Of a stretch of DNA of 64,000 bases, positions 4,691 to 64,000 are shown piece after piece. Below the pieces are notes generated by a model, which searched no databases, was not told the origin of the DNA, and worked only from the letters and a program-made list of their open reading frames with translations. The stretch is from the NCBI RefSeq assembly GCF_056746865.1, contig NZ_CM163382.1. The stretch is one strand, 5' to 3'. Positions within the stretch are counted from its first letter, which is position 1. Every line of letters starts with the position of its first letter. The position numbers were made by a program, and so were the translations under genes.

Positions 4691-7154
4691 ATATCCCTGA
4701 CGATTCCTTGCCCGCCAGCGCCTCCACAATCACCATCGCCGCCCGTTCTCCCGCCTTGCCATCCATAAACGCATCGCAATAGTGATGACGAATCTCCTTA
4801 AGCCGCGCCAGCAACGCACCCCAGTCAAACGCCTCTGACAACAAATAACGCAGTTCCGCAACATCATGAGCCACCGGCAATATTTCGCGGATTTGCTGGT
4901 CGGCGCTTTCGGGCGTGGAGTAACTTTTCTCACCGTCGAGCAACGCTGCCATTTCCGGAAAGTCGAGCAGGATTACCCGCTTATCAACGTGGATAGCATC
5001 GAAAATAAAGCCGCTGTTATCGGTCAGCACGTAATCGGCCTTTGCCAGTAGCGCCAGCGTGTGGTGGACGGAGTCGGTGCGCTGTTTTAAGTGCCTGCGC
5101 GCCAGGGCCAGCGATGCAGCTTCTTCCGGGCGCGAGCAGGTGCCGTGGTGCAGTTTGCAAATCAGATTCACATTGCCACTTAAGCGCCCCAATTTTTCTG
5201 CCCAGTGGGGCAGGGAGCTTAATGCGCCAAACGTGGGGGCGTAGAGCACCGTAGGTTTACGGGAATCGGGTTGAATATTTTCTGGCAGAATGCGGTCAAA
5301 CGTGCCGTTATGCCAGGCGTCGAAGCGCGGGTTGCCGACTGCTTTTGCATTGCCGAAATGCGCCAGCGCCCGCTGGCTGTAGTGGCTGTAACACAAAATG
5401 CGTTGATAAAAACGGTTCCAGTCGGCGTGGTTCCACGTCTCTTTGGCTAAGCCATACATGGCGCGAACGTTCACCGCTGCCAGGCCATTGAGCGCGGGCG
5501 TGTGGTAGGGGCTGACCAGGCATTTCACCCGCTGACCGTGTGCCTGCATTTCAGATAAGCGCATTCCTTTGAGCTGCGGATCGTCGATGCTTTTTAGCGT
5601 CTCCAGCATTTCATCCAGAAACGGTTTAAACACGCGGTCGTTGATCACCAGCGTGCAGCCTTGCCCCTGCGCCTGTAGGGCGGTGATGATTGGGCGGTAG
5701 AGCGCGTAATGGAAAGAAGTTTCCATAAAAAAGCCGATGGTGTCGGCGATGGGTAACGCGGATGGCTTTGTGATAGCAGGTAACTTATTGAAATAGTGAG
5801 CAATATTATCAGTCATTTTTTTCTCGATATCGCTAAAGCCTGGTCGCTGATAACTAAGGCTCGGGTAACAGGCCAGCCATTTGTCGGCGCGTAGCAGCGG
5901 CTGCCAGCCGTCTTCCAGCGAATGCTCATCGTTGCTCATCTGCTGCGCCAGTTGCGGGTAGTAGCGGCGGTTCACCAGATAAGCGCATACCTTGCGGCAG
6001 TCCCGCGCGTGCACCAGCCCCGGCAAACTTTTTAGCATCGTTCCCTGCGAAATTTCGCCGCCGAGGATCATCACCTGCCAGGGAATTTTCGCCAGGCTCG
6101 CCAGCAGCGTGTTCAGCACCTGAATATGTTTCTCCTGCTTGAGAATAACCGCGTCATCTTCCAGCAGCAGATAGTTTTGCCAGCCGTGCTGTTGCGCCAG
6201 GCGCAGCGCCTGCAAGTGCGACTGACGTCGTCCCCGTTGGCCGTTTTGATCTTCACTGGCGGCAAGGCGGGTGATCTTCTCAGGTGGAATATGCAGCAAT
6301 GCCAGTTCTTCACGGATCTGTTGTAAGCGATCCGGGCGTTTATCCAGATTCACAACAACTACCTGATCGATCGTCTGATGGTTGATCCCTTGGTGATGAG
6401 TGGCGTTATGTAGACTCAGATAAGCATTGCGCAGCAGCGGATCGCTGACGATATCTGTAAGCGCCGCGTTTACAGGCGTGCTGGCCCCGAGAATAAAGTC
6501 TTTATCAAAGGTGTTGTGGCTGTGCGAGATACACAGAATCGTGCGCTCGCCGGGCAGTTGTAGCGGGTTAACGCTGAAATTGTCGGTGAAACTTTTCTCT
6601 TCGCCTAAATTGCAATCATCGTCGTAACGGTGCTTTTTCAGGTAGTTACGGTGATAGCAAAAGGTGCCGTTGAGGATGTTATGTGGGCCAAAGCTGCGGC
6701 TTTGAAAGATGCGATTGATGTGGCTGTACCAGATGGGGATCTGGTCGGAGCCGGAGATGAGCGCCCGGTGTTTTTGCATCTTGGCGATGGTCCAGGAGAT
6801 TTTATCTGCCGGGTAGTAGTCGTCATCGTCCATGCAGAGGATGTATTCGCCGCGCGCCAGTTCGTTGAGCATATTGCGTTTTTTGCCCAGCGGCAGTTTT
6901 TCCGGGTGATGAATATAGCGGATGTTAAAGGCTTCCGGCGTGCCATTGGTCAGGCGGTCGATGATGTGTTGATGGCTTTGCGGGGAATCGTCGAGGATGA
7001 TGAGTTCGCGGCGGTCTGCCGGGTAGTCCTGATAGCGGTACATATAAAGCAGGTACGGCAGGAATGCGCTGCGGTTCCAGGTTGGCGTGACGACGCTGAT
7101 GAACGGTTTTTCGCGCTGGGTGGCGAGTGTTTTGATAATGGTTGGTGTTGGCAT
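4683..7154 (-). CDS. Multidomain glycosyltransferase: N-terminal GT2-like, central GT25-like, C-terminal CDP-glycerol glycerophosphotransferase (TagB/TagF)-like
   Basis: The ORF track gives 4683..7226, but its first 24 codons translate the repeat element, so the ATG at 7154 (MPTPTIIK) is the probable start. GT2-like motifs: VVTPTWNRS and LCMDDDDYY (DxD). GT25-like segment: VVVNLDKRPDRL...LLEDDAVI. TagF-like C-terminus: ADYVLTDNSGFIFDAIHVDKRVILLD. Confidence 0.8.
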   Translation of the reverse strand: MPTPTIIKTLATQREKPFISVVTPTWNRSAFLPYLLYMYRYQDYPADRRELIILDDSPQSHQHIIDRLTNGTPEAFNIRYIHHPEKLPLGKKRNMLNELARGEYILCMDDDDYYPADKISWTIAKMQKHRALISGSDQIPIWYSHINRIFQSRSFGPHNILNGTFCYHRNYLKKHRYDDDCNLGEEKSFTDNFSVNPLQLPGERTILCISHSHNTFDKDFILGASTPVNAALTDIVSDPLLRNAYLSLHNATHHQGINHQTIDQVVVVNLDKRPDRLQQIREELALLHIPPEKITRLAASEDQNGQRGRRQSHLQALRLAQQHGWQNYLLLEDDAVILKQEKHIQVLNTLLASLAKIPWQVMILGGEISQGTMLKSLPGLVHARDCRKVCAYLVNRRYYPQLAQQMSNDEHSLEDGWQPLLRADKWLACYPSLSYQRPGFSDIEKKMTDNIAHYFNKLPAITKPSALPIADTIGFFMETSFHYALYRPIITALQAQGQGCTLVINDRVFKPFLDEMLETLKSIDDPQLKGMRLSEMQAHGQRVKCLVSPYHTPALNGLAAVNVRAMYGLAKETWNHADWNRFYQRILCYSHYSQRALAHFGNAKAVGNPRFDAWHNGTFDRILPENIQPDSRKPTVLYAPTFGALSSLPHWAEKLGRLSGNVNLICKLHHGTCSRPEEAASLALARRHLKQRTDSVHHTLALLAKADYVLTDNSGFIFDAIHVDKRVILLDFPEMAALLDGEKSYSTPESADQQIREILPVAHDVAELRYLLSEAFDWGALLARLKEIRHHYCDAFMDGKAGERAAMVIVEALAGKESSGICR

Positions 7155-7332: not shown

Positions 7333-8301
7333 TCACGTCAGCAGCGAAAACGCTGAAAGCAGCGGCTCTGCCGCACATAACGACTGAATTTGCTGGCGAA
7401 TCGACGCAGCATTTTCACTCTCTCGCCAGCGTTCAAACACCGCAAAAAGGGCGAAAATATCCTCCTGTCGCAGCGGTGAACCATCCAGCGTCCATAAACT
7501 GATTAACGTGCGGATAAGATAAAAATCGCACACCAGCGGGCAATAATCTGCTCCGTCTGCCTGCCCAATCACCTCATGGTAAACGCGGTAAATCAGCCAG
7601 TTACGCATCATCCAGGGCGCGGTAGCAAAATGCTGTTGCCAGGTGGTTTGCCACTGTGCCTGAAGCTGATGTTGTAACAGGGCTTCGCTGTTGGCGTCAT
7701 GTAGCGCCAGCAAAGGCATCTGCAACGGCAGCGAAGTTTTGCGCGGGCTTTCCGGCAAAATCGACCAGTCAAACGCACAACTGCCGAGCAGCGTCATCAA
7801 CTGGCGCGCCAGTTGTGGCACGGGCGGCAACTGGGCGAACTGTGCCTGTAGCGTGCCTTTTTTCGCATGATCGGCCAGCGCCTGCGGCAGCGTCGTCAAA
7901 CGGGCAAGAATATCTCCGTCTCTGCCCGGCATTTTACTGGCGCGGGAGAGTAAAATCCCGATGGCATACAGGGAAAGCTCTGGGGTTAAATCGGGGAGCG
8001 TGAGGGTACTCAAAATCACCTGGTTTACTATCGCATCGCGCGCGGAAAGCTCTGCGGCATTTTCTTCCACAGGACGGTAGGTGAGCTGTAAATCAAAGGC
8101 CCTGGCATCGTTGAGTACCGCTTCGCAGCTGGCTGGCTCTGTCAGCATCAGGCTCTGGCGAATCTCGTTTTTCCACACCTTGCGGATGTACAAAGGCGAA
8201 TCGGGATATTGCGTCATAAAATTGCGCACGTATTCCGGTTCGTAACATTCAATAAAACTCATAGGTGGCTTCCAGTCTTTATTACTTTGCGGAATATGCA
8301 A
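7333..8301 (-). CDS. Hypothetical protein (322 aa) at the end of the lfgA-lfgM-lfgN gene string
   Basis: Long ORF co-oriented with lfgN and ending just upstream of the glycosyltransferase gene. I recognise no motif. Confidence 0.5.
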   Translation of the reverse strand: MHIPQSNKDWKPPMSFIECYEPEYVRNFMTQYPDSPLYIRKVWKNEIRQSLMLTEPASCEAVLNDARAFDLQLTYRPVEENAAELSARDAIVNQVILSTLTLPDLTPELSLYAIGILLSRASKMPGRDGDILARLTTLPQALADHAKKGTLQAQFAQLPPVPQLARQLMTLLGSCAFDWSILPESPRKTSLPLQMPLLALHDANSEALLQHQLQAQWQTTWQQHFATAPWMMRNWLIYRVYHEVIGQADGADYCPLVCDFYLIRTLISLWTLDGSPLRQEDIFALFAVFERWRESENAASIRQQIQSLCAAEPLLSAFSLLT

Positions 8302-11504: not shown

Positions 11505-11592
11505 TTGCCTGATGCGCTTCGCTTATCAGGCCTACATGAAACTGCATGGTTTTGTAGGCCGGATAAGGCGTTCACGCCGCATCCGGCAAAAC
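11505..11592. repeat. REP/BIME palindromic units
   Basis: GCCTGATGCG...CTTATCAGGCCTAC and GTAGGCCGGATAAGGCGTTCACGCCGCATCCGGCA units in the flgD-flgE intergenic region. Confidence 0.85.
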
Positions 11593-13579: not shown

Positions 13580-13720
<141 letters not shown>

Positions 13721-16837: not shown

Positions 16838-16925
16838 GTGCCTGATGCGACGCTGGCGCGTCTTATCAGGCCTACGAGTCGCCCGTATGTAGGCCGGATA
16901 AGGCGTTCACGCCGCATCCGGCACC
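16838..16925. repeat. REP/BIME palindromic units
   Basis: GCCTGATGCGACGC...CTTATCAGGCCTAC and GTAGGCCGGATAAGGCGTTCACGCCGCATCCGGCA in the flgJ-flgK intergenic region. Confidence 0.85.
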
Positions 16926-21990: not shown

Positions 21991-22424
21991 AAAGCACAGT
22001 CTTATACGTCCCTGAGAAGATGATTTTTCTGCGTGATAATTAATATTTTATGGTGATAAGATTATTCTTAATCACTATATAGCGTGGAAATGTAACGAAA
22101 TGACAGGACAGGTACAATAGCCAAATGTGTACTATTTGCAACGCAATGTAAATTTTGGCATCAGTACATTGAGAACAAAACGCGATAATTGATGACAATC
22201 TTAACTATATCAAGCGTTTGATAAAGACATATTTTGATACCTGGCCATGTGGCAGATATTGCTAATAATCTTTTTATCTGAATTTAAACTCTGCTTTTTT
22301 TAGCTAAAAGTGGCATCGGATAATACGTGGCGAAAAAATTTTAACGGCGATTTTAAGTTTGCTCCTGAGGTGTCGTTTTTACAGGGTATCGAAACGAAAA
22401 CGATTAATCCCAAGGAGCAGTATC

Positions 22425-31132: not shown

Positions 31133-31531
31133 ATGCGGGTATTCAAAACAAAACTCATTCGCCTGCAACTTACAGCAGAGGAACTTGAAGCGTTAACGGC
31201 GGATTTTATTTCCTATAAGCGTGACGGTGTTTTGCCAGATATATTTGGTCGCGATGCACTCTACGACGACTCGTTTACCTGGCCATTAATCAAATTTGAG
31301 CGAGTTGCTCATATTCATCTGGCAAATTAGAATAATCCATTTCCGCCACAGTTGCGCCAATTCAGCAGAACGAATGACGAAGCGCATTTGGTATATTGTC
31401 AGGGTGCGTTTGATGAGCAAGCATGGTTGCTCATTGCCATTCTGAAACCTGAACCTCATAAACTGGCTCGAGATAACAACCAAATGCATAAAATTGGGAA
31501 AATGGCAGAAGCGTTTCGCATGCGTTTTTGA
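31133..31531 (+). pseudogene. yafO: yafO toxin gene interrupted by an in-frame amber codon at codon 66
   Basis: The frame stops at TAG (31328..31330). The same frame then stays open for 66 more codons to TGA at 31529..31531, giving the 132-codon length expected for YafO. Confidence 0.6.
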
Positions 31532-42647: not shown

Positions 42648-42723
42648 GCCGATATAGCTCAGTTGGTAGAGCAGCGCATTCGTAATGCGAAGGTCGGAGG
42701 TTCGACTCCTCTTATCGGCACCA
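42648..42723 (+). tRNA. thrW: tRNA-Thr (anticodon CGU)
   Basis: GCCGATATAGCTCAGTTGGTAGAGCAGCGCATTCGTAATGCGAAGGTCGGAGGTTCGACTCCTCTTATCGGCACCA: cloverleaf, T-loop GGTTCGA, encoded CCA end. Confidence 0.92.
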
Positions 42724-43066: not shown

Positions 43067-43164
43067 CAGACGCAGATCATTCTGCTAATCCCACCGATGC
43101 TTCGGTCTGGAGTGGTAAATTAATATTGGACACAGTTTTATTTTCTCTCTTTTTCGAGGGCTAT

Positions 43165-43431
43165 ATGAACAGGAAGAATACATCCCTAAGCGGTTAATGC
43201 TGGCGTAATCAATAGACCAGCATTAATCACGGATGATTACCAATCAGACAGATATGGTTAAATCGTCGAATTCATAATTAATACTTTTTCTTACGCCGCT
43301 GAACAGCTTGAAAAGGATACATATTTTAAATATCAGTGAAGTGAACAGTTTATTGCCGTTATTAATAGAGATGGAGGAATAAATACGCGTATTCTACTAT
43401 TGCAACAAAAACAACGATGATGATCAGTTTT
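43165..43431. repeat. Copy A of a ~270-bp duplicated segment (homologous to 63041..63193 plus 63890..64000)
   Basis: By eye, roughly 80-90% identity to two separated segments near ykgO/ykgM. In copy A the two halves are contiguous. Confidence 0.75.
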
Positions 43432-51416: not shown

Positions 51417-51903
51417 GATTTTATCTCCCCCGCAGCGTCTTCAATGGCGGCAAGGATGTTAGCGTATGCTCCACAGCGACAGATGTTGCCGCTCATACGT
51501 TCACGGATCTCATCGGCAGTTCTTTCTGGAGGGGAAACCAAATCGACCGTGACGTGACTGGGAATGCCGTCCTGAATCTCTTTTAGCACCGCTACTGATG
51601 AGCAAATTTGCCCGGAGGTGCAGTAGCCGCACTGGAAGCCATCATGCTTGATAAAGGCCGCCTGCATGGGGTGAAGATTCTCTGGTGAACCCAGGCCTTC
51701 AATGGTGGTGATCTCGGCCCCCTGATGCATGACTGCAAGCGTCAGGCAGGCATTAAGCCTGCGACCATTGACCAGCACGGTACAGGCTCCGCACTGTCCG
51801 TGATCGCAACCTTTCTTGGTACCGAACAGATGCAGATTTTCACGCAAAGCGTCCAGTAGCGTGGTTCGGGTATCCACCTCAAGCTGCTCGGTTTTGCCGT
51901 TCA

Positions 51904-53162
<1,259 letters not shown>

Positions 53163-53769
53163 CACCTTAAGTGTCAGGGGCATTATCTCTGGCGCGGGTG
53201 TAGCTGCCGGAACGCTTGCTGCAAGCGTAGAATGAGGATAAACCACGGCGGTCGCCGCCGTTGCGGCGCTGACTTTAATCAGATCGCGACGGGTCAAACT
53301 AAAATCGTGCGGCTCGTGCTTCCCAACCCGATTATCTTCGGGGTATTCGCCTTGGTTGCTCATACCAGGCCTCCGGTATTCTAAAGGGGAAAATAAGAGA
53401 GCGTTGCGAGAGTGCTGATGCTTTTTTAAACGTTAAGCATAGTCGGTGAGAGCAGGAGGATTATTCTTAAAACGCGAATGCAGCTATGAGCCCGGCTAAT
53501 TAATTCATATTCGCCGATGACGGGAGCTCGTTTATTGCTTTAGTTGTGCGATGCAAAAACCGATAAGGAAACCTGTGATTGTCAGCTCTGCATCACCCTA
53601 CAAATCTTTGTCACTTCTAACATAAAAATAGGGAGAAATGATGGTGCTTATATTCATTGGCGATTAGGAAACTATCTTGTTATACAAAACAATACAGTTC
53701 TTTACATTTGTCTTGTTTTATGAATACTCCTGAAGAGGTGTATAACATAATGGTACAAGCAGGGTAGAT

Positions 53770-62138: not shown

Positions 62139-63040
62139 TTACAGGTACATTCAGTTTCTTTAGTAAATCGGAAGTAAATAAGATACGTAGCACATATCAA
62201 TATAGGTTAAACGAGATTAAGTTTTAATTATTTTCGATTGGGCTTAAATTTATGTTTTTTTCCTGATGAGTGTCAATATGTGAACAGAAAAGGAATTCCA
62301 TGGTTAAGTCAATATTTACAAAAAATGAAAATATTGCTTTTTTGATAAGAAGAAAAAGACATTCAGTTTCATAAGGTTATTGGCAATATAACGTTCAATT
62401 CTTACTTGCATTTTATATTAGCCAGGAACTTTGCCCTGAGGTGTTAGGAATAGTCTTAATGTGTTGTGTAATGGACTAGTAAAAAAACAAGTTTAAATGA
62501 TAAGAAATAGAATATAAAACTATAATGAGTCATAATTAAAGATGATTTGCCAATCAGTAAAGTGTTTTAATGGATTAACATGCCGCACAAAATGGTTATG
62601 GGTGTTCATTCCAATAAGTGATGAAAAATTAAACAGGTGTAAGTACGTCATCTGTCCGGTAAGCCCCCTAAGAGCCAAATTAAGTGAAGTTAAACGAAGA
62701 CTGCCAGTTGTCACAGGAACGATGGCCTCTTTGCCAGGGCACTGCATTCAGTCATCTGTGCGCGTTACTCTAACTGGCACTCGAACGTCGGCGATGGGGT
62801 TACCGGTGGATCAGGCCGTTCCTGTGGCGTAAACGTTTTTATGTCAGTACCAACAGATTTACCACATTTATCATCTTAACCGTTTGAGTGTAAATGCAGG
62901 CTGCGTCGCAAAGGGAGGAAACTGAGTGGCGTGTTCAGTCTAAAAGAGAGTTGATGCCAGCATACAGGGCGCACCTGGTCAACAAGTCAACATTAATATA
63001 ATGGAATATTCGGAGAGAAACGTCAGGCAGTTGACCTTAA

Positions 63041-63193
63041 ATGAACAGGAAGATACATCCCCAGGAAAATTAATGCTGGTGTAATAAATACACCAACATT
63101 AATCCGGTCTGATTATTAATCAGACAAATATCGTTAATTCGTCGAATTTTGAATCAACGTTTTTTCTTACGACCCTGAACGGCCTTAAAACGT
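63041..63193. repeat. Copy B, part 1 of the duplicated segment (matches 43165..43315)
   Basis: Visible alignment, e.g. ATGAACAGGAAGATACATCCCC...TTAATCAGACAAATATCGTTAATTCGTCGAATT...TTTTTCTTACGACCCTGAAC. It overlaps the 3' end of ykgO. Confidence 0.75.
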
Positions 63194-63293
63194 GGATTAG
63201 ATTTACAAATCACATATAGCCGTCCTTTTCGCTTCACAATCTGACAGTCTGGATGGCGTTCTTTTGCGGTACGCAGAGAGTTAAGGACTTTCA
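63153..63293 (-). CDS. ykgO: Ribosomal protein L36 paralog (zinc-independent type)
   Basis: 46 aa [18 protein letters not shown]...AVQGRKKKR. Its start overlaps the ykgM stop. Confidence 0.8.
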
Positions 63294-63560
63294 TCATGCC
63301 CCCTTTTTCGTGCTAACAAAACGACCAAAACGTTGGGTGAATCGTGCAACATTTCCTTCTGATGCCACTGTTCTCAGCTTCCCTGTATAGAACGGGTGCG
63401 ATTTAGAAGAGACATCAATTGTCACGTACGGATACGTTACGCCATCCAGCTCAATCTCACGGTCTGTTTTGATAGTCGAGCCGATTTTAAAGTACTCATC
63501 AACACTGGTGTCATGGAACACCACAGTACGATACTCAGGATGGATATTGGGTTTCATCAT
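63294..63560 (-). CDS. ykgM: Ribosomal protein L31 paralog (type B, non-zinc-binding)
   Basis: 88 aa [19 protein letters not shown]... lacking the CxxC zinc ribbon, with a Zur box immediately upstream. Confidence 0.9.
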
Positions 63561-63568
63561 TTTTACCT

Positions 63569-63586
63569 GTTATGTTATAACATAAC
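63569..63586. promoter_or_regulatory. Zur box (zinc-uptake-regulator operator) for ykgM-ykgO
   Basis: Perfect 18-bp palindrome GTTATGTTATAACATAAC, 9 nt upstream of the ykgM start. Confidence 0.8.
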
Positions 63587-63610
63587 CGTAAAGATACATG
63601 CTCATCCGGA

Positions 63611-63844
63611 TCATTTCAACACCCAATCCCTGTGACCATTTGTGGTATGTGGAATTTCCTCAACGGGGAAGTCTGGCATTGTTAACAGCCATTGGCTGAC
63701 GCTCCCATAAACGCCTGGATGAGTGATTGATGATGGTTTCGCTGAGAGTATGGATTTTTCGAGAATGGAGGTTATCTCCACTTTACTGGCCGATGATTTA
63801 TCGCAGTATGATTGATTACCTGACAGCGTGTATTCCTCTCCCAC
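63611..63844 (-). CDS. Hypothetical small protein upstream of ykgM
   Basis: 77-aa ORF with no recognised motif. Confidence 0.3.
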   Translation of the reverse strand: MGEEYTLSGNQSYCDKSSASKVEITSILEKSILSAKPSSITHPGVYGSVSQWLLTMPDFPVEEIPHTTNGHRDWVLK

Positions 63845-63889
63845 GGATATAATAATTACTTACAAAAAGGGAGAGGATGCATATTTTAA

Positions 63890-64000
63890 ATATCACTGAA
63901 GTGAACAGTTTATTGCCGTTATTAATAGAAATGGAAAAATAAATAGGCGTATTCTACAATTGCGACAAAAACAACGATATTAATCAGTTTATGACTGATT
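63890..64000. repeat. Copy B, part 2 of the duplicated segment (matches 43319..43431)
   Basis: CATATTTTAAATATCACTGAAGTGAACAGTTTATTGCCGTTATTAATAGA... is about 90% identical by eye to 43319..43431. It runs to the window edge. Confidence 0.75.

Follow-up and report, generated by a model that had tools for sequence, protein, structure and literature searches.

The closest known counterpart of the locus considered here is the ykgM–ykgO operon of Escherichia coli K-12 (L31p/L36p, PL31p), whose products bL31B and bL36B take the places of bL31 and bL36 in ribosomes, bL31B also repressing the translation of rpmE (PMC9825181). The K-12 operator, identical to the one described below, confers 560-fold repression by Zur and is the tightest of four Zur operators, with a Kd-app of 0.025 × 10^-18 M2 in EMSA (PMC4219657). 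Deletion of zur or treatment with TPEN results in an approximately 1000-fold derepression from the same operator (PMC7297116), and in the Nissle strain induction by calprotectin reaches about 2500-fold (PMC10410751).

The recognition sequence of Zur was derived by crystallography by Gilston et al. (2014, PMC4219657) as the 18-bp skeleton RNNNYRNNR*YNNYRNNNY, composed of two overlapping RNNNYxxxRNNNY dimer sites. The central TATA is contacted by Tyr45 of Zur and was proposed to tell Zur boxes from Fur boxes, while the Zur footprint extends over ca. 30 bp (PMC4219657). The E. coli operators of znuABC, zinT, and pliG resemble that of ykgM in having the RNNNYRNNRYNNYRNNNY skeleton and in binding two dimers (PMC4219657), but are less palindromic. 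Relative to the ykgM operator, with its Kd-app of 0.025, that of zinT is bound similarly (0.053), and those of znuC (8.2) and pliG (520; all values × 10^-18 M2) much more weakly; repression at znuC and pliG is 7- to 8-fold, against the 560-fold given above (PMC4219657).

The same gene pair, as ykgM–rpmJ2, is repressed by Zur in Yersinia pestis, with the box spanning −34 to −16 relative to the start codon and the mapped Zur footprint upstream of ykgM overlapping the −10 (PMC2706843). The Y. pestis box is imperfect (GATGTTACATTATAACATA), whereas in E. coli it is a perfect palindrome (PMC2706843). According to the review literature, YtiA/RpmEB of Bacillus subtilis and RpmE2 of Neisseria are alike in being zinc-free paralogues derepressed in zinc limitation that replace the zinc-binding protein, but they have another operator consensus and other sets of genes.

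The locus under study lies at the right end of the window, i.e., the whole 64-kb stretch of DNA that was analysed, and judging by its sequence it is almost certainly the E. coli ykgM–ykgO operon with its Zur operator, an explanation that nothing observed speaks against. The 1.2 kb around ykgM–ykgO match the chromosome of strain 118UI of E. coli with 100% identity; its annotation gives ykgM as type B L31 and ykgO as type B L36, and the same 1.2 kb are found at >95% identity in ca. 5,000 complete E. coli genomes. Both genes are located on the minus strand and both are intact, the list of open reading frames and the sequence being consistent with the genes annotated in RefSeq. ykgM (63294–63557, stop included) codes for the zinc-free, C- protein bL31B of 87 amino acids; it begins with the annotated ATG at 63557, with another in-frame ATG 3 nt upstream at 63560, and ends with a TGA stop at 63294–63296. 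A single ykgM ATG, aligned to the second E. coli ATG, is found in six other genera, among them Klebsiella, Salmonella, Enterobacter, Proteus, and Pseudoalteromonas. ykgO (63154–63294, stop included) codes for bL36B of 46 amino acids, with the annotated start at 63294, an additional in-frame ATG at 63297, and the stop codon at 63154–63156; the first-pass annotation let the operon begin at 63153, 1 nt beyond this stop. In the RefSeq annotation the operon is flanked by ykgR, also on the minus strand, from 63922 onward and cut by the end of the window, and by ykgL (62894–63119), convergent to ykgO and frameshifted here.

The same neighbours, ykgR, ykgL, and ecpR, are found in K-12, and the two loci share the accessions of the YkgM and YkgO proteins, the 18-bp operator, the promoter-like hexamers, and the Shine-Dalgarno sequence. 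They differ in a C for T substitution 2 nt upstream of the box, in the last YkgM codon (GCA here, GCG in K-12), in the frameshift in ykgL, and in a decayed ykgO'-'ykgR copy near thrW, present here and absent from K-12. Of the 5426 complete E. coli genomes, 5058 have a ykgM copy with a query coverage of at least 80%, and all ten genomic contexts returned for the exact YkgM protein were the canonical ykgR–ykgM–ykgO–ecpR locus.

The assignment of the two proteins to the type B families is supported by several comparisons. YkgM scores 122.9 bits against the NCBIfam type B L31 profile NF002462 (cut-off 86), while it stays under the type A L31 cut-off of 70 with both NF000612 (59 bits) and NF001809 (53.7 bits); YkgO scores 91 bits against the type B L36 profile NF002021 (cut-off 70), and the Pfam L31 and L36 families match the two proteins as well. 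Over residues 1–68, YkgM is 100% identical to chain D7 in 6i7v, a structure of the E. coli 70S ribosome; the chain is deposited as "50S ribosomal protein L31 type B", and YkgO is 100% identical to chain C5 of the same structure over the residues deposited. There is no cysteine among the 87 residues of YkgM, and in a pairwise alignment with RpmE the CSKC of L31 is aligned to SSKS (CxxC to SxxS). In YkgO the Cys3His zinc motif is incomplete, with only C17, C30, and H14 present, and in a pairwise alignment with RpmJ a Phe stands opposite the His that serves as a zinc ligand in type A L36. YkgM is a type B (C-) bL31 and YkgO a type B bL36. The reading of the pair as zinc-sparing ribosomal paralogues under Zur control, put forward in the first-pass annotation, is supported by the profile scores, the fit and conservation of the operator, and the published K-12 data.

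The predicted Zur operator is a perfect 18-bp palindrome, GTTATGTTATAACATAAC, composed of the halves GTTATGTTA and TAACATAAC, located at 63569–63586 and found only once in the window; all nine half-positions (9/9) are palindromic, as had been noticed at first reading. The minus strand across it reads ...TATCTTTACG GTTATGTTATAACATAAC AGGTAAAA ATG ATG AAA CCC, so that the distance to the first ATG is 8 nt (63561–63568), and to the annotated, conserved ATG 11 nt, instead of the 9 nt reported earlier. The comparison with the known Zur box consensus proposed in the first-pass annotation gave a positive outcome. The two halves satisfy 8 of the 8 constrained positions of the skeleton, which by itself is loose, with 270 matches in the 64-kb window; the four central bases are TATA; and there is a single mismatch, at an end base, to the 18 specified positions of the 20-nt IUPAC pattern TGWNAYRWTATAWYRTNWCA, the K-12 operator having the same mismatch. 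Apart from this box, no unrelated site in the window has fewer than three mismatches to the pattern, the next best one, with three, being situated at 22091–22110.

Palindromy alone is not statistically remarkable; what makes the box significant is which sequence it has, where it lies, and how well it is conserved. In 64 kb, some 0.24–0.37 perfect palindromes of 18 bp are expected, and another one, unrelated to the box, is indeed present inside a gene at 7798–7815; one could regard the box as having arisen by chance in AT-rich intergenic DNA without acting as an operator. We find this scarcely credible, considering that the palindrome fits the Zur skeleton, that in the upstream regions of ykgM from eight taxa it is the sole block of invariant columns (the start codon aside), and that the exact sequence recurs beside zinc-uptake genes in distant Proteobacteria; moreover, binding of Zur to this operator sequence has been published, with EMSA and footprinting, and these data together with the conservation already refute such a reading. 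Equally negligible is the chance that the palindrome serves another regulator of the Fur family, namely Fur itself responding to iron, although the two regulators are paralogues and each has AT-rich inverted repeats as its boxes: at best, 10/19 positions agree with the 19-bp Fur consensus, the central TATA proposed as the discriminator between Zur and Fur boxes is present (Gilston et al., PMC4219657), and the exact 18-mer is flanked elsewhere by zinc genes, not iron genes.

The alignment of ykgM upstream regions mentioned above comprises eight taxa, among them E. coli, two Klebsiella species, Salmonella, Enterobacter, Proteus, and Pseudoalteromonas. Except for the start codon, its invariant columns are confined to the box, with diverging flanks on either side, and the distance from the box to the start codon is 29–33 nt in each aligned taxon. 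Orthologue boxes carry asymmetric changes and keep 7–8 of the 9 palindromic positions, while the box does not vary among the E. coli loci examined, which were those of K-12, CFSAN027346, and 10 additional contigs. Reference genomes, taken as one genome per species, contain the exact 18-mer in at least 120 stretches, against approximately 4–40 expected from composition, and among the 80 listed all are from Alpha-, Beta-, or Gammaproteobacteria. The 126 open reading frames that read away from the listed sites include 20 COG0523/CobW GTPases, 12 ZnuC-type ABC ATPases (ABC_tran), 11 Fur-family regulators, 6 ZnuA proteins, 5 TonB-dependent receptors, 3 FolE2, 2 ZrgA, 2 L31, and 1 ZinT. The zinc-starvation genes flanking the exact 18-mer across Proteobacteria (COG0523, znuA, znuC, zur, folE2, and zinT) are those of the classic Zur regulon, and hence the 18-mer behaves as an ideal proteobacterial Zur box.

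Upstream of the operator a consensus scan of the minus strand predicted a −35-like hexamer TTGAAA (63614–63619) and, after a 17-nt spacer, a −10-like hexamer TATCTT (63591–63596) that ends 4 nt upstream of the box; a promoter-like match of this quality (9/12) is no better than in shuffled sequence, with two found and 3.4 expected. A TTGA is located at an equal distance from the operator in Klebsiella, Salmonella, and Enterobacter, five orthologues from Enterobacteriaceae have a TAnnnT hexamer at 3–4 nt on the upstream side of the box, and the whole layout, TTGA, 17 nt, TAnnnT, 3–4 nt, and the box, can be discerned in the three genera. Since the −10-like hexamer ends 4 nt upstream of the operator, transcription would start at about 63584, on the upstream margin of the operator. 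Between the operator and the start codons, on the same strand, a Shine-Dalgarno-like AGGT (63565–63568) abuts the palindrome (...ACATAAC AGGTAAAA ATG ATG AAA), and a purine-rich GAGG or AAGG motif occupies the equivalent place in the orthologues.

With transcription starting near 63584, most of the palindrome would be present in the mRNA, folded into a hairpin of 7 bp that stops 2 nt short of AGGT, and it could be imagined that such a hairpin in the 5'-UTR, beside the Shine-Dalgarno sequence, additionally tunes translation or mRNA stability. This appears very improbable. The hairpin is weak (−7.1 kcal/mol, z = −0.92, with 33 of 200 shuffled sequences folding as well), the transcription start on which the idea depends is a predicted, not a mapped one, and a ykgM-lacZ fusion was unaffected by bL31 supplied in trans (PMC7297116). 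The orthologues, furthermore, keep the DNA motif with asymmetric changes (the 7–8 of 9 palindromic positions given above) that would weaken a hairpin.

The ykgM and ykgO reading frames had been described as overlapping by an ATGA motif. The letters are indeed present, within GCATGATGA (63299–63291, minus strand), the junction reading GGG GCA TGA TGA AAG, but this is a strain polymorphism and not the conserved arrangement: the ATGA reading arises because the last YkgM codon in this strain is GCA, which creates the upstream ykgO ATG at 63297 by a synonymous difference from the GCG of K-12. In K-12 and O157:H7 the junction is GCGTGATGA, with GCG as the last YkgM codon followed into GTGATG, and in one E. 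coli contig it is GCGTAATGA, with the variant GCGTAATG. The conserved and annotated arrangement is a one-base overlap of stop and start, TGATG, found here as well as in K-12, Klebsiella pneumoniae, and Pseudoalteromonas, while in Salmonella, Enterobacter, and K. aerogenes the two genes are separated by a gap of 2–5 nt. Translational coupling of the two genes is consistent with either overlap, ATGA or TGATG.

In strains with GCATGATG YkgO might nevertheless begin at the upstream ATG, giving a protein of 47 amino acids and a true ATGA overlap, as this codon is in frame and is shared by this strain with 5 of 10 other E. coli contigs. Such a start is unlikely. In K-12, O157:H7, and other strains the corresponding position is occupied by GTG or by no start codon, the family profiles for YkgO start at the second Met, ykgO has a single ATG, at the downstream position, in Klebsiella, Salmonella, Enterobacter, and Pseudoalteromonas, and RefSeq annotates the 46-aa form.

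Downstream of ykgO, on the minus strand, lies a structured region of three hairpins (63061–63159; −40.9 kcal/mol, z = −5.83, none of 200 shuffled sequences folding as well). The last hairpin (63067–63105), followed by UUUUCC, is likely to be an intrinsic terminator, as the folding suggests, possibly common to ykgO and the convergent ykgL. A strict terminator scan found none downstream of ykgO despite the strongly folding hairpins, while a terminator is drawn at this place in Fig. 2A of PMC7297116. The sole match in a permissive Rfam scan of 62500–64000, a "folP RNA" over the hairpins downstream of ykgO, was dismissed as due to chance, as it scored 20 bits where the gathering score is 99.

The regulation of the operon can be envisaged as follows. 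When zinc is replete, zinc-loaded Zur would occupy the palindrome as two overlapping dimers, each on one RNNNYxxxRNNNY element, and its footprint of ca. 30 bp would cover the putative transcription start and reach both the −10 hexamer and the ribosome-binding site, so that RNA polymerase would be excluded by Zur and the operon kept silent. Such repression by promoter occlusion is suggested by the predicted layout of promoter and box taken together with the size of the footprint and with the position of the Y. pestis footprint on the −10. When zinc becomes limiting, Zur would lose its zinc and leave the DNA, and the promoter would fire several-hundred- to thousand-fold. A single mRNA would then serve both ykgM and ykgO, their translation being coupled by the overlap of stop and start codons, and the cysteine-free bL31B together with bL36B would replace the zinc-binding bL31 and bL36 in the ribosome. 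The exchange of the two proteins should lower the cellular demand for zinc and free the zinc bound to ribosomes, and bL31B would additionally repress rpmE translation. Zur binding, the extent of repression, incorporation into ribosomes, and rpmE repression are taken here from the literature on the identical K-12 operator, while the sequence features, the protein families, the fit of the operator, its conservation, and the association of the 18-mer with zinc genes were observed directly. Published work on the identical operator already covers the check for a zinc response proposed in the first-pass annotation, together with its refutation test, and with a positive result.

The first-pass annotation also stated that the operon is partly covered by a duplicated segment and serves as an anchor for interpreting the repeat structure. 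The duplication does cover the last 37 nt of ykgO, but ykgM and the operator lie outside it. Its left arm (63038–63190), comprising these 37 nt, the hairpins, and the 3' end of ykgL, shows 78.6% identity to 43162–43314, and its right arm (63874–63990), comprising the 3' part of ykgR and 48 nt downstream of it, 90.6% identity to 43314–43430. Self-comparison of the window thus delimits a decayed second copy of 269 bp (43162–43430), in which the 3' end of ykgO is fused to a 3' fragment of ykgR; PGAP annotates a partial ykgR at 43362–43430. This relic is colinear with the main locus except for the 683 bp equivalent to 63191–63873, i.e., most of ykgO, the whole of ykgM with its operator and promoter, and the spacer as far as 48 nt past the ykgR stop, and consequently it contains no ykgM, no operator, and no promoter. 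As an anchor the locus identifies 43162–43430 as a deleted, promoter-less copy of the segment from ykgO to ykgR.

The relic is located ca. 440 bp downstream of the tRNA-Thr gene thrW, between a LysR fragment and a gene for a LysR regulator. thrW is the integration site of CP4-6 in K-12. The relic is also present in O157:H7, and at ≥80% coverage in 612 genomes. The LysR and alpha/beta-hydrolase genes neighbouring the two sites code for proteins of just 34–47% identity, which confines the DNA duplication to ca. 270 bp and rules out longer homology around the relic. No second ykgM was found within 49 kb of the main locus in CFSAN027346 or in O157:H7 strain 8368; it turned up beside the urease genes instead. 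Many STEC genomes carry such an extra, stand-alone type B L31 gene (ykgM) beside urease genes (ureG), with a Zur-like AT-rich repeat some 105–125 nt upstream of it, and three further E. coli records of the plasmid collection contain a divergent stand-alone ykgM copy only. A search of a phage collection gave no match, and in the plasmid collection the whole-operon matches from E. coli were F-prime plasmids, mislabelled chromosomes, or chromosome-like fragments. There is perhaps an even chance that the relic is the remnant of a once-complete second ykgO–ykgM–ykgR module at the thrW hotspot that suffered a 683-bp deletion, and that, together with the stand-alone ykgM genes of STEC, it reflects the repeated gain and loss of zinc-sparing paralogues in E. 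coli lineages. With its two arms unequally diverged (78.6% and 90.6% identity), the relic would be of old or of foreign origin.

The operon is a textbook ykgMO/Zur system, real and already known, and its earlier interpretation is right save for small positional details. Every defining feature that can be tested computationally was found at the locus, and binding, regulation, and ribosome incorporation have been published for the identical sequence. As the system is established for exactly this sequence, the finding itself adds nothing new; mildly new, and peripheral, are the deleted relic near thrW, the polymorphism of the ykgM–ykgO junction, and the stand-alone L31B gene of STEC next to the urease genes. 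Its practical value is that of a secure annotation anchor, which settles what the right end of the window is and how it is oriented, and shows that the repeat at 43162–43430 is not a second functional zinc-sparing locus. The ykgM promoter is in use as a calprotectin biosensor for gut inflammation, and for the bacterium itself the importance of ykgMO is that translation in E. coli can go on, and zinc bound to ribosomes is set free, under zinc starvation imposed by the host.

The ykgM–ykgO operon, coding for the type B L31 and L36 ribosomal proteins, lies on the minus strand of the window (ykgM at 63294–63557, ykgO at 63154–63294), and the junction of its two genes (63291–63299) is polymorphic among E. 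coli. It exists in three forms: GCATGATG in the strain studied here and in five of ten other contigs, GCGTGATG in K-12 and O157:H7, and GCGTAATG in a single contig. The change is silent for YkgM, yet it makes or abolishes an in-frame ATG upstream for ykgO. Downstream of ykgO there are hairpins, overlapped by the 3' end of the convergent ykgL gene (62894–63119), which in the window strain carries a frameshift splitting it into ORFs of 35 and 27 aa. These hairpins match the Rfam family folP RNA weakly (63040–63141, minus strand; E = 0.29), scoring 20 bits where the gathering score is 99, and the match was judged to be due to chance. In the ykgR–ykgM spacer, O157:H7 strain 8368 carries an insertion of ISEc8, an IS66-family element (479–2791 of the stretch L011 from that strain), at a site corresponding to about 63722–63729 of the window. 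The predicted −35 sequence of ykgM is situated roughly 100 bp downstream of the insertion, and despite the latter the operator and promoter of ykgM are intact in O157:H7.

A decayed second copy, in which the 3' end of ykgO is joined to a 3' fragment of ykgR, is located at 43162–43430 (junction at 43314), ca. 440 bp downstream of the tRNA-Thr gene (42648–42723). The 683 bp that carry ykgM, the Zur box, and the greater part of ykgO are missing from it, and its two arms have diverged unequally from the main locus (78.6% versus 90.6% identity). This copy is found in O157:H7 and in about 612 genomes; K-12 does not have it. A second ykgM-matching place is present in about 650 of 5070 E. coli genomes. 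STEC genomes have an additional stand-alone type B L31 gene (WP_000803992.1), found outside the window, e.g., at 6002–6265 of L022, a stretch of the O157:H7 EDL933 record NZ_CP124742.1. This gene starts with GTG, is 81% identical to ykgM at the DNA level, and is not paired with a ykgO; it is situated ca. 1.2 kb downstream of ureG, and a hok/gef gene adjoins it. At ca. 105–125 nt upstream of this gene only a weak Zur-like AT-rich repeat is found.

Elsewhere in the window, paoA is disrupted by an IS3-family element, ISEc31 (about 51900–53450), and the reading frame of yafO (31133–31531) is broken by an internal stop. The RefSeq record identical to the window lists the two genes as pseudogenes. 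Among the flg genes of the lateral-flagella (Flag-2) region, intergenic gaps are occupied by three identical copies (35–36 bp; 11553–11588, 13583–13617, and 16888–16923) of a REP-type palindromic element, GCCGGATAAGGCGTTCACGCCGCATCCGGC, whose predicted fold is a stable hairpin (−22.5 kcal/mol, z = −3.15). In the same region, a second perfect 18-bp palindrome, CAACTGGCGCGCCAGTTG (7798–7815), is found within a gene for a hypothetical protein; it has no relation to the Zur box and may well have arisen by chance.

The exact 18-mer of the ykgM operator (63569–63586) recurs in reference genomes, in 120 stretches or more, of which the 80 listed (L023–L102) belong to Alpha-, Beta-, and Gammaproteobacteria; the adjoining genes include COG0523, znuA, znuC, zur, folE2, zrgA, zinT, and TonB-receptor genes. 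Because the exact 18-mer recurs beside zinc genes across Proteobacteria, the E. coli site corresponds to an "ideal" pan-proteobacterial Zur box.
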